Assembly (NCBI GenBank): GCA_021604545.1
Contig: BQJE01000001.1
Span: forward strand, 43,444-107,443
Direction: 5' to 3'
Length of the DNA: 64,000 bases
Origin: Micavibrio sp.
GTDB taxonomy: Bacteria; Pseudomonadota; Alphaproteobacteria; Micavibrionales; Micavibrionaceae
The notes beneath the pieces were generated by a model, which saw only the letters and a list, made by a program, of their open reading frames with translations, had not been told where the DNA came from and did not search any database. Each line of letters begins with the position of its first letter. The first letter of the stretch is position 1. Positions 1,812-61,917 of the stretch are shown one piece after another. The translations under genes were made by a program, and so were the position numbers.

Positions 1812-2300
1812 ATGAGAATATTATTTTTAGCTTTTTTATTTGTAATATTTCTGCCTTGTCATGCAGAAGCTCTTGTGTGTTGGTATGAAGATGAAAAAGA
1901 TCGGCCTACAGTTCAGCAAATTTCTGATAAGGCAGAATTGGTTTTTACTGGTGTATTAAAAAAGAGAAAGGGGTATGGAAAGGTCTCTTCTCCTGATGTT
2001 ATTTTAATTTTTAAAGTTCTAAAAGTACACAAAGGAAATCACAAACAGTTTAATAAAATAGATGTCGGCGGCTTAATTTCTGGGGTTGGTGGATCTCAAA
2101 AATATGAAGTGGGCAGCACATACACCATTGCTGCAAGAAGTAGGAATAATGATGATAGAAACAAAGCATCCTATATGAACGTTGCTGATCTATGTGAGAT
2201 GCCTGTTATAGTTAAAGCCCACCTATCTAAAGACAATTATTCTATCGAAGAAGTTAATAATGGGGGCTGGTTCAACAAGCTAAAAGATTTTTGGGAGTAA
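1812..2300 (+). CDS. Secreted hypothetical protein (AT-rich orphan)
   Basis: It has an N-terminal signal peptide, MRILFLAFLFVIFLPCHAEA. Composition is AT-rich and I recognised no motif. Confidence 0.5.
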   Translation: MRILFLAFLFVIFLPCHAEALVCWYEDEKDRPTVQQISDKAELVFTGVLKKRKGYGKVSSPDVILIFKVLKVHKGNHKQFNKIDVGGLISGVGGSQKYEVGSTYTIAARSRNNDDRNKASYMNVADLCEMPVIVKAHLSKDNYSIEEVNNGGWFNKLKDFWE

Positions 2301-2306
2301 CTCTAA

Positions 2307-2345
2307 CGTCACTTTCCATCACCCATCTTGAGCGCGGCAATCCAC
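2307..2345 (-). pseudogene. Ghost copy of the last ~10 codons of lepA
   Basis: 32 of 39 nt match lepA 3008-3046. On the minus strand it still reads AALKMGDGK*, against AALKMGDEK* in lepA. Confidence 0.7.
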
Positions 2346-2360
2346 TGACACAAGAAAAGT

Positions 2361-2393
2361 CTGGATTTCTTCGCCTTAGGCTCGCAATGACGG
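2361..2393. repeat. REP-like dispersed repeat ending in ...ctcgcaatgacgg
   Basis: ctggatttcttcgccttaggctcgcaatgacgg is related to the copies at 2854-2894, 2924-2970 and 56396-56433. Confidence 0.6.
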
Positions 2394-2416
2394 ATACCAA
2401 GCGCTGCAAACCAAAG

Positions 2417-2809
2417 TCATAAAAAATTCAAGTAGGCAAAGATCAATATTAAAACCACACTAACGATAGAACTAAGTGCTGATAATATTATCAGTGTATG
2501 AATGCGCCCTTCTTTATTGCTTGTAGAGCCATCAATTTCAGGTTTTGTTTTAACGATATTATTGTAATAGTTATATGTAAGCTCTAATCCTAAGAATAAT
2601 CCTACAACCACCAGAATAATAGATATAAGAACCAATATCCATCCAAATACTAAAATGCAGATTCCTGATGTGATATGGTTTTCTTTAAGTAGGCTTAACA
2701 TGCCAATGCTAAAAACCAGAGCCGAGGAAGAAAACGTAACAAGTAGCTTCACAGTAAATAAATGAAGTTCATACATCTTGTTTCTAAGAAAGATTTCTTT
2801 ATCATTCAT
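2417..2809 (-). CDS. Hypothetical four-helix membrane protein (AT-rich orphan)
   Basis: The 130-aa ORF is highly hydrophobic. It lies between the lepA 3' end and its ghost copy. Confidence 0.45.
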   Translation of the reverse strand: MNDKEIFLRNKMYELHLFTVKLLVTFSSSALVFSIGMLSLLKENHITSGICILVFGWILVLISIILVVVGLFLGLELTYNYYNNIVKTKPEIDGSTSNKEGRIHTLIILSALSSIVSVVLILIFAYLNFL

Positions 2810-2853
2810 GTTCTGTTTCCTCCGCGTTCTCTGCGTCTCTGCGATTTAATTAA

Positions 2854-2970
2854 CCAGATCCTACGTCGCCTTTCAGGCTCCTCAGGATGACAGGTTGGCT
2901 AAGCGGCAAAGCCGCGTAAGCAAGGAGATCCTTCGGCTTCGTGCCTTCGGCACTTCGCTCAGGATGACGG
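2854..2970. repeat. Two tandem REP-like repeats (...ctcaggatgac[a/g]gg) with an intervening small hairpin
   Basis: 2854-2894 reads ccagatcctacgtcgcctttcaggctcctcaggatgacagg. 2924-2970 reads ggagatccttcggcttcgtgccttcggcacttcgctcaggatgacgg. The hairpin gcggcaaagccgc sits between them, and a ctctgcgtctctgcg motif lies at 2829-2843. Confidence 0.6.
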
Positions 2971-3009
2971 ATTGCTAAATTCGCGCAAGGGCGCTCATTA
3001 AGAAATCCG

Positions 3010-4818
3010 TCACTTTTCATCCCCCATCTTTAGCGCCGCGATAAACGCGCTTTGTGGGATTTCGACATTGCCGTATTGGCGCATCTTTTTCTTACCTTTT
3101 TTCTGTTTCTCGAGTAGCTTTTTCTTTCGCGTGATGTCGCCGCCGTAGCATTTCGCTGTGACGTCTTTGCGCATAGCGCTCACGTTTTCGCGGGCGATGA
3201 TTTTGCCGCCGATCGCCGCCTGGATGGCGATTTTAAACATCTGGCGTGGGATGAGGTCTTTCAGCCTTTCGCAGAGGTGACGGCCGCGGCGCTCGGCTTG
3301 TGAGCGGTGGACGATCATCGCCAGCGCATCCACCGGTTCGTCATTGACGCGGATGTCGAGCTTGATCAGGTCATTTTCGGCGTAGCCGTCGAGCTCGTAA
3401 TCGAAGCTGGCATAGCCTTTGGAGATGGATTTGAGGCGGTCGTAAAAATCAAACACGACTTCATTGAGCGGCAGGCGGTAGACCAGCATCGCCCGCGCGC
3501 CGGCATAGGTGAGCTCGATCTGGCTGCCGCGGCGTTCCTCGCACAATGTCAGCAAGCCACCGAGAAATTCATCGGGGGTGAGAATGGTCGCCTTGATCCA
3601 CGGTTCCTCTATATGTTCGATATGGGTCGGGTCGGGCATGTCGACGGGGTTGTAGAGCTCGGTCATGCCGCCCTTCATGTCATAGATTTGATAGACAACG
3701 CTCGGCGCGGTCGGGATGAGGTCGAGGTCAAATTCACGCGCCAGCCGTTCCTGTATGATTTCCATGTGCAAAAGGCCGAGAAAGCCGCAGCGAAATCCCA
3801 TGCCGAGCGCCTGTGAGCTTTCGGCCTCGAAATGCAGGGAGGCATCGTTGAGCGCGAGGCGCGAAAGGGAATCTTTTAGTTTCTCGTATTCGCCGTTGTC
3901 GATGGGGTAGAAGGAGCAAAACACCATCGGCACGGAGGGTTTGAATCCGGTCAGCGCCGTTTCGCATTGGTATTTTTCATCGGTGATGGTGTCGCCGACT
4001 TGGGTGTCGGAAATTTCCTTGATGCCGGCGGTGATAAAGCCCATCTCGCCGGGGCCGAGTTCGTCGAGCATGACGTGCTTGGGCGTGAAGATACCAACGC
4101 GGTCAATGTCGCGGGTGGCGCCGGTATTCATGAAGCGGATTTTCTGGCCCTTTTTGAGGGTGCCGTCAATGACGCGGACGAGGATGACGACGCCGAGATA
4201 TGAGTCGTACCAGCTATCGACAAGGAGGGCTTTGGTTGGGGCTTCGGTGTCGCCTTTGGGTGGTGGTAGCTTGGTGATGATGGCCTCGAGCAGATCATCA
4301 ATGCCTTCGCCGGTTTTGCCGGAGCAGGGGATGGCTTCAGACGCATCAAGGCCGATCACGTCCTCGACTTCTTTTTTGGCGGCTTCGATGTCTGCGGCGG
4401 GGAGATCGATTTTATTTATGACCGGCACGATGTCGTGGTTGTTGTCGATGGCCTGATACACATTGGCCAGCGTTTGTGCTTCGACGCCCTGGGTGGAGTC
4501 AACGACGAGCAGGGAGCCTTCGCAACTGGCGAGGCTGCGCGAGACTTCGTATGAGAAATCAACATGGCCGGGTGTGTCCATGAGGTTTAATTGGTATTCG
4601 ATGCCGTCTTTGGCTTTGTAGGTGAGGCGGACGGTCTGGGCCTTGATGGTGATGCCGCGCTCTTGCTCGAGCTCCATGTTGTCGAGGACTTGTTCGGTCA
4701 TCTCGCGTGCTTCGAGCCCGCCACAGGTCTGGATGAGGCGGTCGGCCAGCGTCGACTTGCCGTGGTCGATATGGGCGATAATCGCGAAATTGCGGATATG
4801 TTCGAGTGGTTTGGACAT
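3010..4818 (-). CDS. lepA: Elongation factor 4 (translational GTPase LepA)
   Basis: It has the G-domain motifs [14 protein letters not shown] and NKID. The LepA-specific C-terminus is full length at 602 aa. Confidence 0.97.
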
Positions 4819-4895: not shown

Positions 4896-5366
4896 ATGAG
4901 CGAAGAGAAGAATCCTGAAAAGGTCAAAAAGAAGAAGAAAGAGAAAAAGCCGGAAGTGCCGGTTATTTTGCCACCGGCTTTCTGGTTGGCTCTGTTGGCG
5001 CTGCCGGTTTTGTACGCCCTGGGAGCCTATATTTTTCGTGATGATGAGCCGCTGCCGCCGGAAAATCAGGTGGTGGTAGTACAGGAGCCAGCCCCCTCTG
5101 CCACGCCTTCATCATCCAGAGCCAGATATTCGTCGAGACGGAGAAAGGCTGAAGTACAAACAATATCAGCGGAACAGGTGAAGGCCTGTGCCTTTGATGA
5201 CTGGATCGGAAGACCGGTTAAAGCAAATCTTTTAAGGCGGAGCGGCTTTGCTTACCGGCTTATTTCAGCCGGATATGGTGATACGGTAAGGCCCACCGGT
5301 GATCCCATGGCCCTGAACGTTGAAGTGGGGGAAGGGAATATCGTCACCAAGGTTTGGTGTGGCTAG
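4896..5366 (+). CDS. Membrane-anchored protein with a C-terminal peptidase-inhibitor I78-like domain
   Basis: It has a Lys-rich N-terminus and one transmembrane helix. The C-terminus C..DDWIG...YRLISAGYGDTV...ALNVEVGEGNIVTKVWCG fits the I78 pattern (C...G...R.I.PG..T.D...LN..V....I..V.CG). Confidence 0.5.
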   Translation: MSEEKNPEKVKKKKKEKKPEVPVILPPAFWLALLALPVLYALGAYIFRDDEPLPPENQVVVVQEPAPSATPSSSRARYSSRRRKAEVQTISAEQVKACAFDDWIGRPVKANLLRRSGFAYRLISAGYGDTVRPTGDPMALNVEVGEGNIVTKVWCG

Positions 5367-5576: not shown

Positions 5577-5729
5577 TTAGGCGCTAGGGAGCGGTGAATT
5601 TGTTGAGGGAACTGGATTGGTGCCTGCTTCCAGTTTTTTACCGAAAGAAGGTGTTTCAGTCACATTCGTACCATCACACATCACACAGTGATTGAACGTC
5701 GTTTTTACATCCATTATTGGGTTTGTCAT
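5577..5729 (-). CDS. Unlisted 50-aa ORF at the distal end of the orphan operon
   Basis: My hand translation is MTNPIMDVKTTFNHCVMCDGTNVTETPSFGKKLEAGTNPVPSTNSPLPSA*. GAGGA lies 8 nt upstream of the ATG. One of the three ATTAC-N7-CCGTTT motif copies precedes it. Confidence 0.4.
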   Translation of the reverse strand: MTNPIMDVKTTFNHCVMCDGTNVTETPSFGKKLEAGTNPVPSTNSPLPSA

Positions 5730-5807
5730 TTCACACATCCTCTATTTTAAGGTTACACACATTACACATTTGCCGTTTTTTATTTATCGCCCACTTATGC
5801 GGGTCTC

Positions 5808-6185
5808 TTAGTCTCGTCGAATAATTAGCGGTATATAATTTCCTTCTTTTGCTTCGCCCGTTACATCATCCAACAAAACCATTAGTATCTGGTGAGAGTT
5901 TTGCATATGTTTTGCGACATCTTCTTTTAGTGGTATTCCGAGGTCGCGTATCTCTCCATCATCCAGTACAAAATCCAGTTCGTTTGTTCCCAAATCAAAT
6001 TCCAGCCATGATAGTTCGTTTTTAAAGGGTTTGTTGTGGAACAATACAACACGCCCGTCTTCTTTTATGGCCACCTCCATAAACAGAGGTTCGTCTTTGC
6101 TGGCCCCGCCGTAAACAAAATCACTTATGATCCCGGTGGGTGGACGTTCAGGTTGTGGATCAGTTTTTTCAGTCATGGGGCTCAT
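5808..6185 (-). CDS. Small acidic hypothetical protein, paralog of the 153-aa neighbour
   Basis: It is 125 aa and rich in Asp/Glu. It shares the pattern G..v.FH..p....l..LE.D......V..DG...DLG with 6284-6745. Confidence 0.6.
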   Translation of the reverse strand: MSPMTEKTDPQPERPPTGIISDFVYGGASKDEPLFMEVAIKEDGRVVLFHNKPFKNELSWLEFDLGTNELDFVLDDGEIRDLGIPLKEDVAKHMQNSHQILMVLLDDVTGEAKEGNYIPLIIRRD

Positions 6186-6283
6186 TATAAGCCCGTTTTA
6201 ATCCTGTGAACACCCTTATATTTCCTTATATATTCTAACATATTGCCGTCTTCCGGCGCAAAATTCGCGCCCACTTTTTTGCC

Positions 6284-6745
6284 TTAATTATCTCCGTCTT
6301 TGCCCTTTACAGTCATGGGCACTTCAATGCCGTCAATTGACTCGCCATTCTTCGTTTTAACGATGAAAACCTGCTTGGCTTTCGAGAAGTACGGACGAAC
6401 CAGCCACTGGATTTTAACGCCCAGATCAAGATTCAACCCATCTTTTGTTACGACATTGACGCGGTATTTTTCCGGGTCGTATTCCAGCCGTTCAACATTA
6501 TGAGGCAGATCGGGGCCGTGAAAGATGTATGTTTCACCGGTAATTTTATTTACATAGATGTCAAAATCATCAGGCGTGAAAAAGGCTTTGGCATCCGAAC
6601 CGTCGGAGCTCCAATCATCTTTCATAGAGCCTTCAGAGCCCTGATTTTCGTCTGTATCATCTTCTGTCATGAACGAATTCGCCAGAATGGCCCTCTTGGA
6701 TAAGGAAAAAGATGCTGCTTGCACATATTTTCCAGTTAAAATCAT
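6284..6745 (-). CDS. Small acidic hypothetical protein, paralog of the 125-aa neighbour
   Basis: It is 153 aa, or 128 aa if it starts at MTEDDTDENQ (6670). The core is shared with 5808-6185. Confidence 0.6.
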   Translation of the reverse strand: MILTGKYVQAASFSLSKRAILANSFMTEDDTDENQGSEGSMKDDWSSDGSDAKAFFTPDDFDIYVNKITGETYIFHGPDLPHNVERLEYDPEKYRVNVVTKDGLNLDLGVKIQWLVRPYFSKAKQVFIVKTKNGESIDGIEVPMTVKGKDGDN

Positions 6746-6808
6746 ACCATTCCCCAGTTTAAGGATAAAGCCATTCCTGTAATATTTTTATGTATATTCA
6801 TGGCTATC

Positions 6809-8893
6809 CTATGCTGCCGTTGTTTTGGTTACGCCCAATTTCGGGGTTTGTGCCTGATTGGCATCCAGGACGGCTGCAAACTGTACAACAGTTTTGTCTG
6901 GCTGCTCATCGTCGTTTCCATGCGGGGTAGACTCGATACCACCCATTTTTTTATTGTTGCCATGGGCGTCTTGTGCCATCGCAAATTCTATCGGCATATT
7001 ATTACCCTTGCCAATAAGCGCGATGCCGCCACTGATATTGCTTGTATCAACATGCTTGTTGGTTCCCTGTGTCGCATGGGAAGAAGCTAGTTTTAATTCT
7101 GCGGCCGTTGCTTTTGATGTAACGTTTAACGCAAAGTTTTGGTACTCATTGGCTGGTGCGCCGCCGTCGTGAGGCTGTTCAGTTGCGGAACCCCCCATGG
7201 CCAATTCTTGTACCTTAATCTCTTCGCCTTTTCCTTTTATCATGATTTTTGCGACCGTCTGTGTTTTTGCGGTATCAGATATAGACGCAACATTTGTCGG
7301 ATCATAACCTGCCGGTAGAGAAACGTCAGGAATATGGCGCGTTGTTCCCTTGCTGACTTGTGCGGCATGTTTGGTATCCATGCTGCCTTCTATCATTTTG
7401 GCACCAACCAGAAGTGTGCCGATAAAGAGAGCCACATTTAAAATGCCTTGCGTACCCCAGGGCATATTGTTGCTGATCCAGCTGCCGATTGTTTTATAAG
7501 CCAGAATGGCTGCCAGAAGTCCGCCAGCGCCTTTTGCTATGCTTTGGGCTGTCGTTCCTTCCCTGCCGTTCCAGATGCGGGAGAGGTAATTTTTACCTCT
7601 TGTATAAAGCGAGCCGGAGCTATTGGAGAAAATTCCACCCAAGCTTTGGCCAAGGCCGTGGAGTGAGCCACCCTTTCTTAATTCCAGAGGCGCCATGCCG
7701 CCGCCTTTGCCATCATCCCATGCATTTGAAGCGCCTTCACTGTAGTTTTCTAATTTAAGGTCATAGGTTAGTTTCTGCGCTTTTTTAACGGCGTCATTTG
7801 CGCGCGCTGTCTGGAGGGGTGTTTTTCTTGCGTTTTTCAGGGCTTCTTCTTTCTCCCTGACCTCATCCAGAGTTTTTGCATCTGCGTTGTTATTAATGGC
7901 TTCTCTTTTTTCTTCCTCAAGGTCTGCCAATGCTGTTTCGATGTTAGCCAGGTTTGTCTTTATGGTGCCAATGATCTCGCTTGCTTTTTTAAGCTTATTG
8001 TTCACCTGATCGTCGCGCGCTTTTTCGCTTACAGAATGTTCTGTCTGCTCTGCGATAAGAGCATCTTTTGCGGCTTTGATTTTATCTTTCGTTTCCGGTG
8101 TGAAGTGTTGAGTTTTTGCTGTTTCTTCAACCGCTTTCAGAGCCTTAATCATCTCCGTGATTTTACCTTGCCTTAGTTCCTCGTTGGCTTCGATTTTCGT
8201 AAATTTAACCCGCAGTGTATAGGCATCTTCCCTGGCTGTTTTTGCCTTTTTGGTGTCTGGTTTGGGCAGTGCCTTTTTTAGTTCACGAATAACCGTGTTG
8301 ATCTCGCCGATGAAAACCTGCTTATCGCCGAGCCTGACCAAAAGTTTTTTCGCCTCTTCCAGATCCTTAATTTCCTTGTCGATGTCTATCTTGTCTAGTA
8401 TGACCTGGTTCTGGGTGGGGGCTGCAGGTTGGCCGGGGGTGGCGGCTACCCCTGGTGCTGCAGGAACTGTTTTATTTTGTATATTTGCTAGTCTGTCAGC
8501 GACTGTTGCTGCCTGCAACATATCTTCCATCTTGTCGCTGCCATATTGAATAAGTCTCCGGCCCTCTACGGCAGCGACACTATATGCATGTCCCGGACCC
8601 ATCTTTTTTTCAATTTTCAAAAAGAAGTCAGTTAATCTCGCCGGACCAGTGCTCATAAAAGATTTTGTGTATTTCTCCATTAGATCACGATCAATATTGA
8701 TATGTTTGTCAGCCAGGGCGAGGGCGTCATCAATATTTGCGCTGGTGGCACTTTTAAGAGATTCAATGATAATTTTTGTTAGCTGTGCAACATCGTTTTG
8801 GCCAATTGTAAATAGCATCAATGAAAGCGGTTCACCTTCTGCGATGAGCTTGTCTTTAGCGTCTATTTGGCTTTGTGTTAGTGTGTTGTTCAT
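6809..8893 (-). CDS. 694-aa orphan protein with a long coiled-coil region and a bilobed hydrophobic hairpin
   Basis: Residues ~170-400 are K/E/A-rich heptad-like sequence. The hydrophobic hairpin is GAGGLLAAILAYKTIGSWISNNMPWGTQGILNVALFIGTLLVGAKMI. The RBS is AGAGGGA. I recognised no enzymatic motif. Confidence 0.7.
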   Translation of the reverse strand: MNNTLTQSQIDAKDKLIAEGEPLSLMLFTIGQNDVAQLTKIIIESLKSATSANIDDALALADKHINIDRDLMEKYTKSFMSTGPARLTDFFLKIEKKMGPGHAYSVAAVEGRRLIQYGSDKMEDMLQAATVADRLANIQNKTVPAAPGVAATPGQPAAPTQNQVILDKIDIDKEIKDLEEAKKLLVRLGDKQVFIGEINTVIRELKKALPKPDTKKAKTAREDAYTLRVKFTKIEANEELRQGKITEMIKALKAVEETAKTQHFTPETKDKIKAAKDALIAEQTEHSVSEKARDDQVNNKLKKASEIIGTIKTNLANIETALADLEEEKREAINNNADAKTLDEVREKEEALKNARKTPLQTARANDAVKKAQKLTYDLKLENYSEGASNAWDDGKGGGMAPLELRKGGSLHGLGQSLGGIFSNSSGSLYTRGKNYLSRIWNGREGTTAQSIAKGAGGLLAAILAYKTIGSWISNNMPWGTQGILNVALFIGTLLVGAKMIEGSMDTKHAAQVSKGTTRHIPDVSLPAGYDPTNVASISDTAKTQTVAKIMIKGKGEEIKVQELAMGGSATEQPHDGGAPANEYQNFALNVTSKATAAELKLASSHATQGTNKHVDTSNISGGIALIGKGNNMPIEFAMAQDAHGNNKKMGGIESTPHGNDDEQPDKTVVQFAAVLDANQAQTPKLGVTKTTAA

Positions 8894-8919
8894 TTTATTT
8901 CCCTCTATTTTTTTTGGTT

Positions 8920-11900
8920 TTACCGTCCTAGTACGAGTGGCTCCGTTTCTTTAAGGAAGTTGTCCAGCATCATTCGTCTTTCCTGCTGGTTTTTTGGTGT
9001 TTGTATAGCAGGTAAGTTCGTTGCTTGCGCAAATTGTCCTGATGGGTTGTCAGGATTTGTTTCCTCAAGGAACTTATTCAGATAAGCGCGCGTTTTTTCT
9101 TGATCCACCACGACAACGGCTGGGTCCGGTATTTGTGACATTGTTTTGAACTGGCGCCTTGTTTCGCGCAGGCGTTCTTGTGGATTCTTTCCAGCAATGA
9201 TGTCTTTTGCAATTCTCATATCATCCATGATTTCGTCTGGCGGTACTTGCCCAATGATGCTGAAAGCCATCCGCATATCTTCTTTTAATTCAGCAGCGGC
9301 CAATCTCGATTCGGTTTCGCCGCGGTCGCCAAGATAATGTTTGTTAAATTCCATGAGGCTGAGGCCCGGTGCATCGGTGCTGAAATAATCTTCCACTTCT
9401 AAATTTAGTGGTGCGGCTTTTCCTAATTTCTTTTTGACCATTTTTTGTACGGGATCGCTGTTCCATAAATTCCTGCCGGCGGCTGTGTATCCTCTGAGGG
9501 GGCTCAGTCCCAAATCGACAATATCCAGAAGGAGTTCTGTTGTTCTGTTGCCGACGTCAAGATCGGTATTCGTAAATGGAACAACAAGATTGCCCTCTTC
9601 ATTGGTTATCCATGTTTCTTTTTCGGGTGTCATCGTGCCTTCGATGGTGCCTTCAATAGCAGCTAAAGCAGTACCACCAGCGCCCAGAGCTATCGCAGTT
9701 TTCTTGGCGGCTGTGTTTGTAAACAAGGGTTTTGTAACCAAGATGGCCGGGCGGATGGGTAGGGTAGCCCAGTTCCAAAGAAGCTTAGTAACTACTTTAG
9801 CTCGTGCCGCTAACTCCCAACCTCTTTTCTCGTCTTTCCCAAGTTCGGGTAACCATAGAACTCGTGGTGCCGGGTTTTTAGGATCCACAGAAGGAGATGT
9901 ATAACCACCAGATAGATAGGCTTTGGTCTCTGCCCACCAATTGCGGGCCCTTTGTACGACAAACATATCCATAAATGGCACCGCAATTTCACCTTCACCG
10001 GCAAATCGCTTTCCGTGCCAAAGTAAGTGACTCATACGGACAAACAGGTCCAGGACATGTCTTTGAAATTGTGGGAACGGGCTGTGGCCCATCCATGCTT
10101 CTTCAAAGGCTACCCCTCCCAAAAATTCATCAAAATGTGCCATTGCTGTGGCTGCTTCAGGTGTGCCTTGTGTTATCCTGATAGCCTTAACATCGGGGCG
10201 GTCTTTTTCACTCCCCAGCATGTTAGACAGGCCTTGCGGGATTTTATTTTCTTCACCGCGTCCGGTCATCCATTGCAGACGCTGTATGGCTTTGATGTAT
10301 TCCCACTCTCTACCGGCACCGTAAACTGTTCTGGCTTGTCCATCGAGATATTCAGTAACTGATTTCTTTTGACTTATGACCTCTTGCAGCTCATGTGCCA
10401 TTTCAATCAGGATGGCAAATCTCTCGGAGTTATCCCGGTCTGGAAACTCAATTATGTCTGCGATCCTTCTGTTTGAGTTATAATAACCAACATCAAACAT
10501 GCGCATCAGGGCATCTATATCCTCTATTTTATTTTTACGCATCTTCCAATTTCCACCCAAAGTTTTAGGAACAAAGCGTTTCCAGTTATATATGGCTTTG
10601 TCTTGGTCCCTTTGGAAGGCATTGGCTGATTTTTCCTGGTTGGCATTACCTGTGAGTTTTTTAATGTCCCACAGGCTTTTTCTGATTGCCTTTCCAACCG
10701 CAGATTCATCAATGTTTTTTCCCAGAATGTCATCAAATTCTTTGGAGTATTGTGTTCCAAACCCACTGCCTATATCACTTAATTTTTCAGCTGTGGATTT
10801 GATATTAAGGACATATCGATACATGGCATCTGCCTGACGGTGCTCAAGCCGGAAACTGCCTTTCCCCCCATTTTTGGCATTGGTTACATAGGCGATTCTT
10901 TGTTCTAGCGAAAGTGTGAGCCCGGTACCCTTTGCGGCCTGGCTTGCTTCCCAGTCATCAATGATTTTTGTTGCTCTTGCGCCGGCTTCGTCTGGATCTA
11001 TACCTTTTTCTGCTTTTCGTGCCAGCTCTGTGACCTTGGCAAGATCTCTTTCCAGTTCAATTTCATCAACGATGCTGTCCAGACTTTTTGCGAAATCCCC
11101 TAGTTTCGTTTCGTTGTCTAACCTGAACTGGTCGACAAGGTCTGCACACTCCTTTTTAGCTTGCGTAGCATCAATTTCATTTCTTTCCGCTCGTCTTGCA
11201 ACTTTCTCGAGCTGTGCTTCAAGCGTAGAGACGATCTCGTTCATATTGTGTCTGCTATCCAGTATTTTATCATCTATGGCATGTATGAATGCGTGCATGT
11301 ACTTGCCCATGGCCAGATCATTTGGAAGCCAGTCAGAGGGATCTCCAGTTTTCCATGGGGGTAGCATTCTTCGTGGCAAACCCGCCGCCCATACTGCGGT
11401 GTGCATCCAGCTTCTCTCAGGCGCAGCAATAATTTTGTCAGATGTTATCAGGCCGCTCGGTGCGCCCCTATACCAGCTGCGAACTTTGTTTCCAGCTTTT
11501 TTTACGCCGCCTACAACGGAGCCGAGCTTTCCGCCAGTCCATGATACAACTTTCGGTATGACAACAGGGCCGAGGGCACCAAAGGCGCCGCCCATGACGA
11601 CCTGCTGTGCGAAGAGGTCGGTTCTGAATTCCTTTTCCCTGCCGATGGTGACGTCTGTGTCGAGGCGGTGCTTGGCATCGATGGCTGCGAAACTTGTGCC
11701 TTCAACCAAACCCATGGCGGCTCCGTATGTTTTTGATACTGGGCCTGCGGCTGTTTTAGCACTTGATACGGCAGCTCTAATTCCGGATGATTTAATGGCG
11801 CTCAGACCGCCTTTGGCGACGTTCCAGCCAATTTGTAGACCTTTACCCAAAAAGCCGGCGGGAAGCATAAGAATGTTTTCGGGGGCGGCCAGAGTTTCGA

Positions 11901-12441
11901 GTACAAATTCAATATTGCTGGCATCGTATTTATCGTAAACATCTTTTAGATAGCGCAAGGCTTCTTTTTGTTCCGGCGTAGCCTTCTCAGCTTTTCTGTC
12001 AACGCCGATCGAACCACCTATATCATCGCTATTGAACCAGTTCAGTGGATTGATGAGTTCGGTACTCCACTCGGCCAGGCCGGTTTCATAGTCCATCATA
12101 AATTCCATACCGTAGTTTATGACTTCGTCATCGCTCATTGATTGAGGCGGCGGCTTGCCTTTCATCATTTCATAGGTATGGACACTGGCCCTCAGCAATG
12201 ATTGTCTAAGGGCAGCGTTTTCTGGTTTGTCTTCGTAATCTTCGTCCTGGAATTTGTTTTCCCGGTGCAGGACAGTCTGGTCGTATTTCTCTTCGTAGCT
12301 TTCTCCGCCCAGGCCGGTAGCGGCTTGCTGGAATCTTGACACGGCAGTTTCGCGCCCTTGCTCTAATGCAGGGTCGCGTTCTTCCGTCGTCGCTGTCGCG
12401 GACGGTTTGTCTATCGTTATAAATTTGTTAATATCCGCCAT
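8920..12441 (-). CDS. 1173-aa orphan protein with Gly/Ala-rich hydrophobic segments
   Basis: This is a single long ORF. Hydrophobic segments include VVMGGAFGALGPVVIPKVV and AIALGAGGTALAAIEGTI. No recognisable domain or signal peptide. Confidence 0.7.
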   Translation of the reverse strand: MADINKFITIDKPSATATTEERDPALEQGRETAVSRFQQAATGLGGESYEEKYDQTVLHRENKFQDEDYEDKPENAALRQSLLRASVHTYEMMKGKPPPQSMSDDEVINYGMEFMMDYETGLAEWSTELINPLNWFNSDDIGGSIGVDRKAEKATPEQKEALRYLKDVYDKYDASNIEFVLETLAAPENILMLPAGFLGKGLQIGWNVAKGGLSAIKSSGIRAAVSSAKTAAGPVSKTYGAAMGLVEGTSFAAIDAKHRLDTDVTIGREKEFRTDLFAQQVVMGGAFGALGPVVIPKVVSWTGGKLGSVVGGVKKAGNKVRSWYRGAPSGLITSDKIIAAPERSWMHTAVWAAGLPRRMLPPWKTGDPSDWLPNDLAMGKYMHAFIHAIDDKILDSRHNMNEIVSTLEAQLEKVARRAERNEIDATQAKKECADLVDQFRLDNETKLGDFAKSLDSIVDEIELERDLAKVTELARKAEKGIDPDEAGARATKIIDDWEASQAAKGTGLTLSLEQRIAYVTNAKNGGKGSFRLEHRQADAMYRYVLNIKSTAEKLSDIGSGFGTQYSKEFDDILGKNIDESAVGKAIRKSLWDIKKLTGNANQEKSANAFQRDQDKAIYNWKRFVPKTLGGNWKMRKNKIEDIDALMRMFDVGYYNSNRRIADIIEFPDRDNSERFAILIEMAHELQEVISQKKSVTEYLDGQARTVYGAGREWEYIKAIQRLQWMTGRGEENKIPQGLSNMLGSEKDRPDVKAIRITQGTPEAATAMAHFDEFLGGVAFEEAWMGHSPFPQFQRHVLDLFVRMSHLLWHGKRFAGEGEIAVPFMDMFVVQRARNWWAETKAYLSGGYTSPSVDPKNPAPRVLWLPELGKDEKRGWELAARAKVVTKLLWNWATLPIRPAILVTKPLFTNTAAKKTAIALGAGGTALAAIEGTIEGTMTPEKETWITNEEGNLVVPFTNTDLDVGNRTTELLLDIVDLGLSPLRGYTAAGRNLWNSDPVQKMVKKKLGKAAPLNLEVEDYFSTDAPGLSLMEFNKHYLGDRGETESRLAAAELKEDMRMAFSIIGQVPPDEIMDDMRIAKDIIAGKNPQERLRETRRQFKTMSQIPDPAVVVVDQEKTRAYLNKFLEETNPDNPSGQFAQATNLPAIQTPKNQQERRMMLDNFLKETEPLVLGR

Positions 12442-12542
12442 GGATACACACCTTCTTTTCTATTACCTCTTTGCCGTTTGTCCGTATTTTTACGGTTCTA
12501 ATTATTTTATTTTTTATCGTTTTTTATCGTTGTCGTTTTTTA

Positions 12543-13166
12543 TTAATACATTCCTGTTGGTTCAGGTTCTTCTTGTGTAAGTGCCTCGGTGACCTGTCCG
12601 TATTTTTGTTTGATCCAGTTCACGGGCGTTTCCAATTTAATGCCGTTTGTTTGTTTGGGACCTTTCTGGCTTGCCTCATCATTGAAGTAGCTTTTAAAGT
12701 AATCTTTTAGAAAATAGTTCCAAAACAAGCCAACAATGGCTGTAGCAGCTGCACCATAAACGGTACTCTTAGCCGCACCGCCTGTTACCACGCCTGCTAT
12801 TAAAGGGACTGCGAAAGTACTAACTGTGTCCCAAGTTCCGGCTTCTTCAGGCTCTCCTTTGTTATCATCAAAGTGTTTTCCTAGAGCTCTTTCACGGGGC
12901 TCGCCGGAGAATTCTACAGGGTCTGGGGGGGCTGTGGCTCTTTTGTTAGAAGAGTGTCCCCGCGGAGTTATCTCATCCTCAGGTTTGTTTTTTCCTGCAA
13001 TGGTTACCTTGGTACCATCAACGATCATAGAAAAACGTTGACTAAAAGATTTGTCTTTTGCGTTCACAGCTCTTTGAAAGGATTCCATTATGCCGCCGTT
13101 ATAGACTCCGCGATCAGTGAGGTCGGCGAATCCTAGAAAAGTTGCAAGCCATGCTATAGGACCCAT
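12543..13166 (-). CDS. 207-aa orphan protein with a Gly/Ala-zipper hydrophobic hairpin
   Basis: The hairpin is FAVPLIAGVVTGGAAKSTVYGAAATAIVGLFW. A strong RBS (AGAGGGGGG) lies 8 nt upstream of the ATG. Confidence 0.6.
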   Translation of the reverse strand: MGPIAWLATFLGFADLTDRGVYNGGIMESFQRAVNAKDKSFSQRFSMIVDGTKVTIAGKNKPEDEITPRGHSSNKRATAPPDPVEFSGEPRERALGKHFDDNKGEPEEAGTWDTVSTFAVPLIAGVVTGGAAKSTVYGAAATAIVGLFWNYFLKDYFKSYFNDEASQKGPKQTNGIKLETPVNWIKQKYGQVTEALTQEEPEPTGMY

Positions 13167-13359
13167 AGCTATACCCCCCTCTTATAAAGGGGGTAGAAAG
13201 GTGGCTTTTTCACCATGTGATGAAATATGCGTAAAGATCTGTTTTTAAACAGCTTTTTCATACCCTTATTACCTTCTTACCGTTTTACTTTTTTATCGTT
13301 TTTTCTTATGGTTAAGTGCATTGTACCTGAAAACACAGGGCCATTGCAAATTTTTATGG

Positions 13360-13375
13360 TTAACAAAGGGTTAAC
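13360..13375. promoter_or_regulatory. Perfect CtrA-box consensus TTAA-N7-TTAAC
   Basis: The site is ttaacaaagggttaac. It lies in the purH / orphan-operon intergenic region, ~195 nt upstream of the 207-aa gene start. Confidence 0.5.
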
Positions 13376-56863: not shown

Positions 56864-57577
56864 CTAAGCGTTCACAGCTTCCTGCTGTTTTTTCTTTTCT
56901 TCTTCCGGGTCGCGCAGGACGTAGCCTCTGCCCCAGACGGTTTCGATATAATTGGCGCCTTCTGTTACATCGGCCAGTTTCTTGCGCAGCTTGCAGATAA
57001 ACACGTCAATGATTTTTACTTCCGGTTCATCCATGCCACCATAAAGATGGTTCAGGAACATTTCCTTGGTCAGCGTTGTGCCCTTGCGTAAGCTCAGCAA
57101 TTCAATAATGCCGTATTCCTTGCCGGTTAGATGCAGCGGTCTGCCGTCGACTTCGACGGTGCGGGAATCCAGGTTCACGCAGACGCGGCCGGTTTCAATC
57201 ACGCTTTGTGAATGACCTTGGCTTCTGCGGACAATCGCTTGAATTCGGGCGACTAATTCGCGTTTATCGAACGGCTTGGTCAGGTAATCGTCAGCGCCAT
57301 AGCCAAGACCTTTGAGCTTGTTATCAAGCTCGGTCAGACCGGACAGAATAAGAATAGGGGTTTCAACCTTGGCATCGCGCAGATGTTTCAAAACATCGTA
57401 GCCATCCATATCGGGCAGCATCAAATCGAGGATGATAATGTCGTAATCGTAGATTTTGCCGATCTCCATGCCGTCTTCACCCAGATCGGTGGTATCGACA
57501 ATATAACCTTCTGATTTGAGCATCAGCTCGATGGATTTGGCGGTGGAGCTGTCATCTTCGACTAAAAGAACGCGCAT
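56864..57577 (-). CDS. ctrA: Cell-cycle / motility master response regulator CtrA (OmpR family)
   Basis: [25 protein letters not shown]...[17 protein letters not shown]...TKPF is followed by the winged helix [13 protein letters not shown]. It is a near-canonical CtrA sequence. Confidence 0.92.
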
Positions 57578-57769: not shown

Positions 57770-59158
57770 ATGGACAGAATGGCCGACCAGGTAGAAGCCG
57801 CAATTTCGACTCTTCCCGATAAGGAAATATACGGGCAGGTGACGAAAGTGCTCGGCCTTTTGGTTGAAATAGCCGGTTTTACAAGCAATCTCTCTATTGG
57901 CTCGATGGTGCATTTGCGCCCCGATGGCAAGTCGTATATCCCTTGCGAAGTGGTCGGATTTAAAGACGGCCATGCGCTTTTGATGCCTTTTGGTACGCTG
58001 GAAGGGGTTGGGCTCGGCTGTCGGGCTTATATTCAGGAGGGTGATCTGGTGATTACGCCGGATGATCGCTGGCTCGGTCGCGTGATTAACGGTATGGCAG
58101 AGCCGATTGACGGGCTTGGGCAATTGGGGAAGGGCGGGCATCCTGTGCCGCTGCGTAACAAACCGCCGTTGCCGCATTCACGGCAACGCATTGGTGAGCA
58201 GCTGGATCTTGGTGTGCGCTCTGTGAATTCATTTTTGGCAACATGCAGAGGTCAGCGCATGGGGATTTTTTCCGGCTCTGGTGTTGGGAAATCGGTGTTG
58301 TTGTCGATGATGGCGCGTTATACCACCGCCGATGTTTCGGTGATCGGGCTGGTTGGTGAGCGTGGCCGCGAGGTGCAGGAATTTCTTGAAGATGATCTTG
58401 GCGAAGACGGGTTGGCGCGCTCGGTTGTGATTGTTGCGACGGGTGATGAGTCTGCCTTGATGCGCAGGCAGGCGGCTTATACGACGCTGGCTGTGGCCGA
58501 GTATTTCAGAGATCAGGGTAAACAAGTGTTGTGTCTTATTGATTCCGTTACAAGATTTGCGATGGCGCAGCGCGAGATTGGTTTGTCTGCCGGTGAGCCG
58601 CCAACATCGAAAGGATATCCGCCAACAACATTTGGCGAGTTGTCGCGGCTTCTTGAACGCGCCGGGCCGGGCGCGCCGGGGCAGGGCTCTATTACGGGAT
58701 TGTTTTCCGTGCTGGTCGAGGGGGATGATCACAACGAACCGATTTCCGATTCCGTGCGCGGGATTGTCGACGGGCATATTGTTATGCGCCGTGAAATTGC
58801 CGATCGCGGGCGCTACCCGGCGATTGATGTGTTGAAATCGATCTCGCGTTCGATGCCGGGATGTTTTAATGACTGGCAAAATGCGGTGATAAGACGTGCG
58901 AAGCAGATTGTAACAACGTACGAAGATATGGCTGAATTAATACGGCTCGGCGCGTATCGAAAAGGCAGCGATGCCGCGGTGGATGAGGCGATTGCCATCT
59001 ACCCGCAAATTGAGGAGTTCCTGCGCCAGCACAAGGATGAATCAACAAGCATCGATAAAAGCTTCCAACTTCTGGCCGGGATTTTGGGCGTGGCGCAGGA
59101 GGAGGATTTTGGTTTGGTGGATGATGGTATGGGTGATAAGGGAATGAGTGATGGCTGA
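57770..59158 (+). CDS. fliI: Flagellum-specific ATP synthase FliI
   Basis: It has Walker A GSGVGKS and Walker B LLIDSVTR. The F1/T3SS-ATPase core is RYPAIDVLKSISR. Confidence 0.95.
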   Translation: MDRMADQVEAAISTLPDKEIYGQVTKVLGLLVEIAGFTSNLSIGSMVHLRPDGKSYIPCEVVGFKDGHALLMPFGTLEGVGLGCRAYIQEGDLVITPDDRWLGRVINGMAEPIDGLGQLGKGGHPVPLRNKPPLPHSRQRIGEQLDLGVRSVNSFLATCRGQRMGIFSGSGVGKSVLLSMMARYTTADVSVIGLVGERGREVQEFLEDDLGEDGLARSVVIVATGDESALMRRQAAYTTLAVAEYFRDQGKQVLCLIDSVTRFAMAQREIGLSAGEPPTSKGYPPTTFGELSRLLERAGPGAPGQGSITGLFSVLVEGDDHNEPISDSVRGIVDGHIVMRREIADRGRYPAIDVLKSISRSMPGCFNDWQNAVIRRAKQIVTTYEDMAELIRLGAYRKGSDAAVDEAIAIYPQIEEFLRQHKDESTSIDKSFQLLAGILGVAQEEDFGLVDDGMGDKGMSDG

Positions 59159-59949: not shown

Positions 59950-61917
59950 TTAGGCAGAAACGCCCAGCGTCTGCTCCGTCGGGATCACCTGCACCCATTG
60001 TTCGGGGCGGTTTTGGAAGGATAGCTCGCCGGCCAGCTGGGTTTGGCCCAAAGCGCCGCTATAGGTGCGTTTCATTTCCCTCTGCATCGCTTGGCTGAAC
60101 GGGGTTTCGGCGCGGACAATTAAATCGAGTCGTGTGGTGCGGAACAACCCATCCAACTGCACCTTTCCCATCTGGCTCAAATTCAAATCAAAAATAAAGC
60201 GTGTTTGTCTGGTTTTTTCCTGTTCATCACTATCGCCGCCGCCATCCTGTTTGTAGTACAGCGCCATTTTGTGCATCTCGCCTTCCCAGAAATGCGGGAT
60301 GCTCATGCCGCGCCAGTCCTGTGAAATCGGCTCGGCACTGAGGCGGCTCAAAATCGAACCTTCTTGCGTCAGGCGGGAGAGTAAATTTCCTTTGCCGTCG
60401 CGGCGTAAAATATCGATGGTTTTATCACCGAGCCAGCTTGAAATGTCGCCGCTACGCACTGCGGCCAGAAAAAATAACGCTGCCGGGCCGAGCTGCGCCG
60501 GGTTGCTGGCTTGTGGTGTCATATTGCTGAGCACCTGTGCGGCTTGTGGGGATACTTGGGTGAGGGATTGATAAATTTGTTCCAGCACCGGCCATGTTGA
60601 TTCTGGTGTGAGGAAGGCGGCCGGAATCGCTGCGGTGAGTGGTGGTAATGACGTTGAGGTTATCACTGGTAGCGGCGTTTGCGGGGTGAGCTGTATTTGT
60701 GTGCCGATTGGCAAGGTGCTGCCCGGTATTTGGATGACAAAAAGTGGTGCACTTGTATCGCCGGGCAGGGCGAATGAAATCACGGGTAAGTTTTGCTGGA
60801 TAAAACCGACAACATGTGCGGTGTTGCTCACGGGTGTGTTTTGAACGATGGGTGCAGCGTTTGGCGCTGTGATGTTTTGGGTTTGCTGGCCGGGCGGAAC
60901 AATTTGCACATCAGGTTGGGTAATCGCTGTGATGCGTGCTTCAAAAGGTTGTTGTTCTATCGATAGAGCAGGCGGCGTTTGTCCTTGTGCGGCGCTCAGA
61001 ACAATTGGTTGTGTTAATGTCGGTGCCAGGACAAGCGGCGTTAAAAGAGTAAGGGTCTGGGGTGTCAGAACCGATTGCTGCGGCGGGGCGAAGGAGACTT
61101 CCGGGATAATCTGCGGCGTATTGAGGGCCGGTAAGTCCTGAAGCACGGGCTGTAATATTGGCAGTAGGGGCGCAGGCAAAACAGGCTCCGTCTGTACGAG
61201 AGAGAGTATTGGTGTTTGCTGTGGAACCGCCGGGGCCTGCGCCGGGGCCTGCACCAGGGCTCTGATCAGGTTTGTTATCTCCTGCGCCTGCGTTTCCGTC
61301 ACAACAATCTGCGCGGCGATTTCTGTGCGGGCGACGATGCTGCTTTGGATTAATTCAGTGATTGGCTGGACAATATCTTGCGCCAGATTGGCGGCGAGCG
61401 GTAATAGCCTGACGACATCTTGCGGCTGCACGGGTTCGGCTTGTCGTGTGGTTGGTGTCGGCGTGGACGATCGTAGCTCGACATTCACAGGTGTTTCAGC
61501 CGTGCGTGCGCCTTCTTGTGTCGCAGTTTGTGTTTCGGGCGGTGGTGCGTGTCGCTGGTCCACCGGTGTTGGCTCACGGATGACGGCTTGCTGTGGTGGG
61601 TTGCCGGGTTGAATTTCGATGTCGACACGCTGGCCGACTTCCGGGCGCTGGACACGGCCATGCTCGGGGCGGATATTAAATTCACCGTGTTCAGTCCGCA
61701 CACGTACTGAGCCATCGCGATTGTCGCCGACGATTTCGGCCTGCAAACGCACTGGCTTTTTTACATCGTTTAGCTCATTCGGCACGCCGATGAGGCGGAC
61801 CCTTTGCCCGTCATTTTGCTCATTACCGCGCTCAAGGCCGGGAATATTGGTCAGATCGCGCGGGCCGCCACTGCCGTTATTTCCCGGGCCGCCGGGTGGA
61901 AATCCTGAATCGCTCAT
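59950..61917 (-). CDS. Pro/Gln-rich flagellar hook-length-control (FliK)-like protein
   Basis: It has a long P/Q/T-rich linker. The C-terminal pattern FIFDLNLSQMGKVQLDGLFRTTRLDLIVRAETPFSQAMQ resembles the Flg_hook domain. It lies in a flagellar locus. Confidence 0.45.
   Translation of the reverse strand: MSDSGFPPGGPGNNGSGGPRDLTNIPGLERGNEQNDGQRVRLIGVPNELNDVKKPVRLQAEIVGDNRDGSVRVRTEHGEFNIRPEHGRVQRPEVGQRVDIEIQPGNPPQQAVIREPTPVDQRHAPPPETQTATQEGARTAETPVNVELRSSTPTPTTRQAEPVQPQDVVRLLPLAANLAQDIVQPITELIQSSIVARTEIAAQIVVTETQAQEITNLIRALVQAPAQAPAVPQQTPILSLVQTEPVLPAPLLPILQPVLQDLPALNTPQIIPEVSFAPPQQSVLTPQTLTLLTPLVLAPTLTQPIVLSAAQGQTPPALSIEQQPFEARITAITQPDVQIVPPGQQTQNITAPNAAPIVQNTPVSNTAHVVGFIQQNLPVISFALPGDTSAPLFVIQIPGSTLPIGTQIQLTPQTPLPVITSTSLPPLTAAIPAAFLTPESTWPVLEQIYQSLTQVSPQAAQVLSNMTPQASNPAQLGPAALFFLAAVRSGDISSWLGDKTIDILRRDGKGNLLSRLTQEGSILSRLSAEPISQDWRGMSIPHFWEGEMHKMALYYKQDGGGDSDEQEKTRQTRFIFDLNLSQMGKVQLDGLFRTTRLDLIVRAETPFSQAMQREMKRTYSGALGQTQLAGELSFQNRPEQWVQVIPTEQTLGVSA

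Follow-up and report, generated by a model that had tools for sequence, protein, structure and literature searches.

A candidate lineage-defining operon of Micavibrio-type bacteria: a giant hairpin protein, a predicted β-domain family, and a conserved CtrA-type box

Introduction

The subject of this study is an operon of six genes, termed A to F, that lies between purH and lepA in a stretch of 64,000 nucleotides of a Micavibrio sp. genome (assembly GCA_021604545.1, contig BQJE01000001.1, positions 43,444 to 107,443; the whole stretch is hereafter called the window). Genes B and C together encode a giant protein with Gly-rich hydrophobic helices, gene A a small product with a hydrophobic segment, genes D and E two small acidic paralogs with a predicted β-domain, and gene F an acidic micro-ORF (ORF, open reading frame). 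No paper that describes this locus was found in the literature. In the searches made here, the six products are unlike any described family or solved fold, so that the system appears to be new in kind and we infer its function. Parts of the operon nevertheless resemble parts of several described systems.

The translocators of type III secretion systems (T3SS) with their chaperones, such as IpaB/IpgC and YopB/SycD, include a protein rich in coiled coils that lacks a Sec signal and carries a hydrophobic hairpin of two helices, with small acidic proteins encoded beside it; all of these traits are also found in the operon. Compared with these translocators, the giant is 3–5 times larger and carries its hairpin near the C terminus. 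D and E differ from the chaperones in being predicted all-β rather than TPR-like helical or CesT-like, in being encoded downstream, and in being more conserved than the large protein. Pfam and NCBIfam gave no match of A, B, or C to a translocator family. The initial annotation, a reading of the bare sequence that preceded this analysis, had seen no injectisome in the window and flagellar export as the only export apparatus; among the scanned ORFs of at least 230 aa in the 64 kb, flagellar FliI is indeed the only T3SS-type gene product. The Inc proteins of Chlamydia likewise bear a tight two-helix hydrophobic hairpin with a very short loop and are lineage-specific and fast-evolving. Their hairpin, however, lies near the N terminus of a small, injectisome-dependent protein; the operon has no IncA family match, and the host biology differs.

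PodJ, TipN, and SpmX are large, lineage-specific, membrane-anchored proteins with coiled-coil or disordered regions, variable spacers, and a CtrA-type promoter logic, and in this they are similar to the giant; SpmX, in addition, has two C-terminal transmembrane (TM) helices. In contrast to these proteins, the giant shares none of their domains and has a hairpin of much lower hydrophobicity than that of resident TM helices, and D and E have no counterpart there. The pair IcmS/IcmW on DotL of the Dot/Icm type IV secretion system (T4SS) is similar to D and E in that two small acidic co-encoded proteins form an adaptor, which is proposed to be heterodimeric here. A tandem of D-type domains at the C terminus of a VirD4-family ATPase (P0123) extends this likeness. 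Nevertheless, there is no similarity in sequence or fold, no T4SS genes lie near the operon, and P0123 is one cluster in an unrelated context.

Antiphage proteins such as TIR-STING, TIR-SAVED, and the TM-β-barrel protein Cap15 place an N-terminal TIR or TM effector before a small C-terminal β-domain. The same order is seen in fusion proteins that carry the D-type domain, some of which have defense-like neighbors. However, the D-type domain has no structural match to STING, SAVED, or Cap15 and no PADLOC model, no cyclase partner was seen, and the Micavibrio copy is a standalone core gene; defense models of PADLOC gave no match for A to E. The glycine-zipper proteins VacA and CdzC/CdzD share with the giant conserved GxxxG-rich helices of modest hydrophobicity—a likeness in composition only, since the proteins are not homologous and differ altogether in size and architecture. 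D and E show no Pfam PilZ match, no fold neighbor in the PDB, and, by inspection, no RxxxR...D/NxSxxG motif in their consensus that would place them among PilZ-type second-messenger receptors. Searches of PHROGs, phage genomes, viral contigs, and BFVD gave no membership in phage tape measure proteins or their assembly chaperones.

A core operon between purH and lepA

In ~45 species-level Micavibrio-type genomes, the genes are arranged as purH–A–giant–D–E–micro-ORF–lepA. In the window, the operon consists of six co-directional minus-strand ORFs, A–F, at 5577–13166, with intergenic gaps, from A to F, of 101, 26, 63, 98, and 69 nt (Table 1). All six had been placed by the initial annotation with these sizes and gaps and are present as placed. 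Since all six slots recur in relatives and purifying selection is seen where it is measurable (dN/dS of 0.13–0.32), A–F are genes rather than chance ORFs.

Table 1. Positions of the operon genes and associated features in the window
Feature	Position	Strand	Description
CtrA-type box TTAACCCTTTGTTAA	13360–13374	-	Perfect TTAA-N7-TTAA, ~200 nt upstream of gene A
Promoter-like TTGCAA-18-TACAAT (predicted)	13320–13349	-	From consensus scan; just downstream of the box
Leader element AATAAGGGTATGAAAAAG with palindrome CTGTTTAAAAACAG	13239–13270	-	~100 nt past the box, ~100 nt upstream of gene A
Gene A	12543–13166	-	207 aa; Gly/Ala-rich hydrophobic segment at residues ~114–145
Gene B	8920–12441	-	1173 aa; N-terminal part of the giant, predicted all-α
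GxxxG hydrophobic segment of B	11542–11616	-	Residues 276–300, LFAQQVVMGGAFGALGPVVIPKVVS; Kyte–Doolittle (KD) 1.74
Second Gly/Ala-rich segment of B	9643–9696	-	Residues 916–933, AIALGAGGTALAAIEGTI; cited in the initial annotation
Gene C	6809–8893	-	694 aa; C-terminal part of the giant: K/E/A-rich helical region, hairpin module, polar tail of ~190 aa
C-terminal hydrophobic hairpin of the giant	7379–7549	-	C residues ~449–505
Gene D	6284–6745	-	153 aa, acidic, D-type β-domain; probable true start Met26 at 6670 gives ~128 aa
Gene E	5808–6185	-	125 aa, acidic, E-type paralog of D
Gene F	5577–5738	-	Acidic micro-ORF, 53 aa (50 aa from second Met)
ctrA	56864–57577	-	NCBIfam equivalog NF045991, 418 bits (cutoff 350); presumed trans-acting regulator
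fliI (flagellar export ATPase)	57770–59158	divergent from ctrA	FliI_clade3, 639 bits

B matches, with complete identity, a hypothetical protein from a Micavibrio sp. metagenome-assembled genome (MAG; DHS20C02). A word-indexed search of 5.8 billion proteins yielded a single relative of B with 54% identity, and the contig of this relative (L001) has the six genes in the same order, likewise between purH and lepA. Four loci with distant relatives of D (L003, L004, L005, and L065) show the arrangement cheR–purH–small ORF–giant–D–E–micro-ORF–lepA. A distribution scan of one genome per GTDB species gave 56 loci, all of which belong to Micavibrio-type or unclassified alphaproteobacterial MAGs, with a few labels evidently wrong. 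As judged by an ORF and BLAST survey, D is present in 49 loci; in these, E is adjacent in 43, lepA lies downstream in 38, and purH upstream in 27, and the ORF region of the giant measures 1300 aa or more in 37 of the 49. Identity to L001 amounts to 77–78% for D and E, 56% for B, and 29% for both C and A, compared with 84–96% for purH and lepA. The initial annotation had described the locus as an orphan, island-like cluster and had proposed its phyletic spread and synteny as a check. The fixed position in ~45 species shows, instead, that the operon belongs to the core of the clade and is passed on vertically; it is neither island nor orphan. By comparison of the available sequences, the operon is restricted to this clade and probably lineage-defining.

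Composition and flanks were compared with the same annotation. The operon region has a GC content of 45.7% and the remainder of the window of 49.2%. The AT-rich contrast reported for the operon is hence real but mild, and the value of ~62% given for lepA is corrected to ~55%. As had been stated, the flanking genes showed no integrase or transposase, and no tRNA lies within 20 kb of the operon. A genomic island was rejected as a candidate given the fixed position in ~45 species, the GC difference of only 3.5 points, and the lack of a tRNA and of phage matches. A phage origin was rejected as well: no PHROG match was found below E = 0.04, and there was no match to phage genomes or viral contigs. 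B gave nothing in a tblastn search of 50,697 phage genomes, and no viral contig carries a relative of D or E. Scans of the products against Pfam, PHROGs, NCBIfam, and PADLOC gave no match below E ~0.03, in keeping with the earlier failure to recognize any family, and none of the six products has a signal peptide, as already noted for the N termini of the three large ones. Matches to phage, conjugation, or housekeeping families, which the initial annotation had named as counterevidence to its own reading, were absent from the library and phage searches.

Degenerating or non-functional lineage DNA, or a remnant of a phage or conjugative element, would account for a GC content slightly under the window average, the lack of family matches, and the splitting of the giant at differing points in 14 loci. 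However, the reading frames are open in ~45 species, D and E remain 45–80% identical across the clade, and the promoter is conserved; there is no PHROG, phage-genome, or viral-contig match and no flanking tRNA or integrase. The conservation data effectively refute such a remnant.

Variation was observed at the 5′ end of the operon. In one subclade, an extra ORF of 600–760 aa precedes the giant (L035, L040, L041, L042, and L044), and L025 has an extra E-like ORF of 106 aa (3817–4137) upstream of the giant. These loci have no perfect CtrA box in their intergenic region near purH. Given the extra upstream ORFs and the lack of a perfect box there, the subclades differ in the 5′ end of the operon and in its regulation.

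The giant protein and gene A

Genes B and C occupy a slot that elsewhere holds one ORF of 1300–2500 aa, which is split at various points in 14 loci. The single ORF elsewhere, the shared N-terminal modules, and the homologous hairpin regions identify B and C as one protein after fission. The three large hairpin proteins of the initial annotation thus reduce to A and one giant in two pieces, the 1173-aa and the 694-aa ORF. As judged from the alignments, the giant has conserved modules in its N-terminal part, followed by a hypervariable spacer rich in K, E, and A, by the conserved hairpin module, and by a polar tail that varies.

The modules at residues ~40–340, 300–460, and 530–950 of B are common to 28 of 38 giants in jackhmmer searches. 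Near-invariant positions of the giants are mostly Gly, Ala, Arg, Pro, and Trp, and the conserved residues of B include A85, A161, G284, G288, D390, R647, N671, E673, G710, R794, and P822; no catalytic signature is found among the conserved residues of the giants. G284 and G288 form a near-invariant G284xxxG288 motif across the giants and are located inside the first hydrophobic helix. The second Gly/Ala-rich segment of B is kept in L001, where it is hydrophobic as well (KD 1.48), and lies outside the broadly shared modules.

Full-length C is variable: jackhmmer gave only three hits, and the relatives matched are just the two nearest. Its hairpin region, used as a jackhmmer seed, recovered 31 of 34 giant C termini. 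A pair of Gly-rich hydrophobic helices connected by a loop of 4–18 aa is found in 34 of 37 giants at a near-constant distance of ~170 aa from the C terminus, the tail mostly measuring 137–209 aa. The Gly/Ala-rich hydrophobic hairpins seen in the initial annotation are therefore present as conserved features of the family. The two hairpin helices have median Hessa sums of +3.1 and +5.2 kcal/mol, compared with at most +2.5 for all resident permease and transporter TM segments—a comparison that is indicative only, as the scale is crude and position-independent and the control set, taken from the same genomes, was thresholded. By this sequence-derived measure, the hairpin helices appear suited to conditional membrane activity and not to constitutive anchoring.

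Pfam gave spurious coiled-coil families only for 28 giant orthologs. B has no match in Pfam or the PDB, where single-sequence and profile searches returned only unspecific apolipoprotein-like or coiled-coil matches. A protein search that started from a 20-sequence alignment of giants led to two close proteins only, low-complexity words dominating the candidates.

In most loci, the A slot holds an ORF of 127–277 aa that often has one or two hydrophobic segments. Its sequence shows little conservation, as is evident from the 29% identity of A to L001 and from many singleton clusters. A candidate relation of A to the hairpin of the giant as a paralog is not supported, as matches were only sporadic.

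Promoter, CtrA-type box, and leader

The initial annotation had pointed to a perfect CtrA box upstream of the operon. This box is the sole perfect TTAA-N7-TTAA in the 64 kb, where 1.38 are expected, and is hence not significant by count. However, the box is conserved in L001, and a perfect box is found in 18 of 27 orthologous purH-to-A intergenic regions, compared with a mean of 0.64 and a maximum of 5 in 2000 shuffles. The distance from the box to the start of gene A is 172–242 nt in 17 of these 18 loci and 638 nt in L053. The consensus of the box reads TTAAc..TTt.TTAACcc and is followed by a −10-like element. The promoter-like TTGCAA-18-TACAAT is conserved between the window and L001/L006; other subclades have a TCTATA.CATG element after the box in its place. 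The ~170 nt upstream of gene A are far better kept with respect to L001 than gene A itself. With the clade-wide conservation of the box and with ctrA located beside fliI in the window, the CtrA link drawn earlier holds. Conserved box and ctrA together give good comparative support to CtrA control. The operon carries the conserved promoter box of a CtrA regulon member and probably depends on CtrA.

The leader contains a core, aAgAgGGTATGaAa, that is conserved in 13 of 18 aligned leaders. Its palindrome reads CTGTTTAAAAACAG in the window and CTGTATAAATACAG in L001 (~9215–9260), a compensatory change that preserves the pairing. Rfam gave no match for the region including the leader. A candidate upstream ORF at the conserved ATG of the leader was rejected because it would yield just 3 codons in L012. 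The repeated upstream motif of the initial annotation exists, but only as a weak A-rich element in 2–3 imperfect copies. The intergenic region between ctrA and fliI contains no perfect CtrA box.

Polar-development genes of alphaproteobacteria carry CtrA boxes, and the box-bearing promoter would suit a resident polar or cell-cycle scaffold of the PodJ/TipN/SpmX kind. Such a scaffold would hold the hairpin in the cell's own inner membrane and organize the flagellar, pilus, or attachment pole, with D and E as regulatory or adaptor subunits. Vertical inheritance at a fixed locus across the clade, the lack of catalytic motifs, and a che operon that adjoins many loci are consistent with this role, as is the combination of a coiled-coil-like variable spacer and a C-terminal membrane hairpin found in SpmX-type scaffolds. 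Yet the hairpin helices far exceed the insertion threshold within which resident TM segments fall, domain homology to PodJ, TipN, or SpmX is absent (no Sel1/TPR, peptidoglycan-binding, or muramidase matches), and adjacency to che is not universal (L005). A scaffold also leaves unexplained the reuse of the D-type domain on TIR and HExxH proteins of unrelated bacteria. A scaffold role is, on balance, rather unlikely.

The small proteins D, E, and F

D and E are the best-conserved products of the operon, with 45–73% identity across the clade and 45–78% for E to its orthologs. The D family comprises >120 clusters at 45–80% identity and is without a Pfam domain. D and E have pI values of 4.7 and 4.5 and are paralogous (BLASTP E = 5e-7), as expected from their earlier description as two small acidic paralogs. 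Met26 of D is near-invariant among relatives. In some of the relatives, the 25-codon extension in front of it (6670–6745, minus strand) is open, with weak conservation (MI...A(V/I)LA...); most relatives lack it. This pattern in the alignment suggests a true length of ~128 aa from Met26, with 153 aa as the alternative.

The AlphaFold2 (AF2) model of D, calculated from a multiple sequence alignment (MSA) of 41 sequences, features seven β-strands and one short helix, with a predicted local confidence (pLDDT) >90 for residues ~55–148. Foldseek—among the checks proposed in the initial annotation—found no neighbor of this model in the PDB at E ≤ 0.001; the best match had E 0.07 and a TM-score <0.25, and no chaperone was among the matches. 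Foldseek found nothing in BFVD at E ≤ 0.001 either, and a profile search against PDB sequences gave no match. The D/E β-domain, as modeled, is an undescribed domain family without a fold neighbor in the PDB or BFVD and without a Pfam family. The initial annotation had likened D and E to dedicated chaperones of the T3SS type. This is supported neither by the seven-stranded all-β model of D, which has no neighbor among solved structures, chaperones included, nor by the degree of conservation, which for D (77% to L001) is far above that of its supposed cargo, the giant (29–56%).

The F slot is filled in 31 loci by acidic, G/N/S/T-rich products of 45–103 aa. Subsets of these are mutually recognizable, and many end in GMG or GM; F of the window barely aligns to the F product of L001.

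Fusions of the D-type domain

A HMMER search with a D+E profile among 1.84 billion cluster representatives gave 320 clusters, and the architectures refer to the best 148 of these. Standalone D/E proteins account for 79 clusters, an N-terminal TIR domain with a C-terminal D-domain for 22, and a polytopic HExxH membrane protein with a C-terminal D-domain for 16. One cluster, P0123, is a VirD4/TraG-type coupling ATPase with a C-terminal tandem D-D, and 30 clusters have other architectures. D-type is the sole fused type, E-type being known only as an operon gene, and the fused genes sit outside the Micavibrio operon context. The architectures TIR-D, HExxH-D, HExxH-D-D, and VirD4-like-D-D appear to be undescribed.

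The TIR-D gene P0133 (L056, 9596–10531) is followed by a PDC-M50A-like defense-candidate gene at 10586–11008 (E = 2e-30). The gene of the polytopic HExxH membrane-D protein P0147 (L064, 8001–9695) is found beside HEPN_AbiU2, AAA_15/21, and HATPase_c_3 genes. The VirD4-like ATPase P0123 (L062, 920–4984) has 1354 aa and belongs to a single cluster in an orphan, unrelated context, and an HExxH-D-D protein is encoded on an ‘Aliiglaciecola’ MAG contig (L060, 15–1898). One D-fusion gene is located near transposases. The tandem D-D fusions suggest that the D-domain works as a dimer, which makes a D/E heterodimer plausible, and the occurrence of fusions outside the operon marks the D-domain as a portable binding, sensor, or adaptor module.

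In known defense effectors such as TIR-STING and Cap15, the effector comes first and a small β-sensor second, and the fusions of the D-type domain to TIR and to HExxH membrane proteins resemble this order. Together with the neighboring genes of the two fusions above, this would allow the operon to be taken as a conflict or defense module with D and E as sensors and the giant as a membrane-disrupting effector for abortive infection or interbacterial killing. The operon itself, however, is syntenic, single-copy, and core in its clade rather than sporadic or island-borne. The probable CtrA control, the lack of PADLOC matches for the products and of viral relatives, and the high, nondiversifying conservation of D and E speak against defense as well. 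A defense function fits the fused D-domains and not the core syntenic operon, for which it is very improbable.

The D-D tandem on the C terminus of one VirD4-type ATPase, an enzyme class that recruits substrates, bears on a different possibility, namely that the giant is exported. In this case, a non-Sec route—the CtrA-co-regulated flagellar T3SS or another exporter—would carry the giant out of the cell, its hairpins would enter the membrane of the prey or host as an anchor or conduit, and D and E would serve as chaperones or export adaptors. In agreement with export, no product has a signal peptide, the Gly-rich hairpins are marginally hydrophobic like those of exported membrane-inserting proteins, and the hypervariability of spacer and tail is compatible with an arms race. 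The CtrA box is conserved and ctrA adjoins the flagellar-export gene fliI, and the cultured members of the clade to which the operon is limited are epibiotic predators (PMC3189940). On the other hand, no translocator, Inc, or chaperone family is matched, the fold of D is unlike that of any solved chaperone, D and E are much more conserved than their supposed cargo, and giants of 1300–2500 aa are atypical as T3SS substrates. The window contains no injectisome or T4SS, its only exporter being flagellar, and for the cultured M. aeruginosavorus ARL-13 both T3SS and T4SS are reported absent (PMC3189940), which weighs against export; the giant, moreover, is seemingly missing in this strain. Some Micavibrionales are perhaps not predators, according to a published account (PMC9933672). 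Export of the giant is therefore regarded as unlikely.

Proposed model

The preferred reading is a CtrA-timed operon for a membrane-active giant-protein complex with a D/E adaptor dimer. From sequence comparison, a rough probability of 0.4 is assigned to it. CtrA activity in alphaproteobacteria marks the predivisional and motile stage. Phosphorylated CtrA would bind the TTAA-N7-TTAA box and give rise to a single A-B-C-D-E-F transcript, and the operon would be expressed in the predivisional or motile stage, which corresponds here to the attack phase. The giant features a glycine-zipper (GxxxG) helix in its N-terminal modules, a fast-evolving coiled-coil-like spacer, and a tight, Gly-rich, marginally hydrophobic hairpin. 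The hairpins would bind to or insert into the bilayer conditionally, co-translational threading being unlikely, and A may act as a variable small hydrophobic partner. D and E would form a cytoplasmic heterodimeric adaptor, with the conserved modules of the giant or a conserved cellular machine as the possible partner, and would hold, dock, or regulate the giant. The target membrane may belong to the cell itself, at its pole or envelope, or to a prey cell. Of the interpretation offered by the initial annotation, the lack of families, the hairpins, the paralogs, and the CtrA link are retained in this model; the orphan locus, the three separate hairpin proteins, and the T3SS chaperones are given up.

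Several observations weigh against this model. The perfect CtrA box is not present in every locus (18 of 27). The hydrophobicity of the hairpin was compared on a crude position-independent scale with a thresholded control set, and K+R per residue amounts to 0.19 in the N-flank, 0.13 in the loop, and 0.11 in the C-flank, so that the topology is not fixed by the positive-inside rule. The AF2 model of B, from a two-sequence MSA, is almost wholly helical, and its pLDDT of 33 is too low to define a fold. The putative interaction of D and E with the giant is read from gene adjacency, and the defense-island-like settings of the fused D-domains point to a sensor rather than an adaptor role.

The cultured relative adds to these points. 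The lepA–cheR interval of ARL-13 (GMV_701–711) holds nine hypothetical genes of 54–438 aa, two of them of 116 aa, and features no giant ORF and no purH (PMC3189940). The giant is apparently missing from this interval; if so, it is not universally required in the group. Values of the gene expression index (GEI) for attack/attachment are 0/9.2 for GMV_704, 13.6/24.5 for GMV_705, and 4.1/15.3 for GMV_706 (PMC3189940). GMV_704–710 are positional candidates only and show modest expression in both phases (PMC3189940).

A bolder version joins the proposed complex to export and is held to be quite improbable. The operon would then encode the membrane-breaching device of epibiotic Micavibrio-type predators: a CtrA-controlled glycine-zipper giant of the attack phase, exported without Sec, would insert into the envelope of the prey and serve there as an anchor or a conduit for feeding. 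D and E would then be export adaptors of a new, β-fold class, and in other bacteria their domain would also have been taken up by TIR effectors, by HExxH membrane proteins, and by a T4SS coupling ATPase.

Neighboring features of the window

A convergent ORF of 156 aa, conserved in 15 loci, lies between the operon and lepA (4896–5366, plus strand) and features a Lys-rich N terminus, a single TM helix, and a C-terminal domain. Its orthologs in L003 and L005 match Pfam Inhibitor_I78, weakly in the case of L005, and the copy of the window has no Pfam match at E ≤ 0.01. This ORF may be a functionally linked neighbor. The stretch just downstream of lepA (2001–3000) has a GC content of 37–40%, the lowest of the first 20 kb and below that of the operon. 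Near ctrA and fliI, a large uncharacterized ORF of 655 aa (59950–61917, minus strand) has no Pfam or NCBIfam match.

Implications

We know of no account of the way in which Micavibrio-type bacteria attach to other bacteria and drain them, and to our knowledge most of their attack-phase transcripts are termed ‘hypothetical’. A core, apparently clade-restricted operon with a conserved CtrA box is a testable candidate for a lifestyle-specific envelope machine. Its parts, listed here, are the giant protein with its hairpin, D and E as a probable adaptor pair, and the promoter with its leader. The ligand of the D/E domain, once found, could clarify both the operon and a set of uncharacterized conflict-system proteins of TIR, metalloprotease-like, and VirD4-like type.

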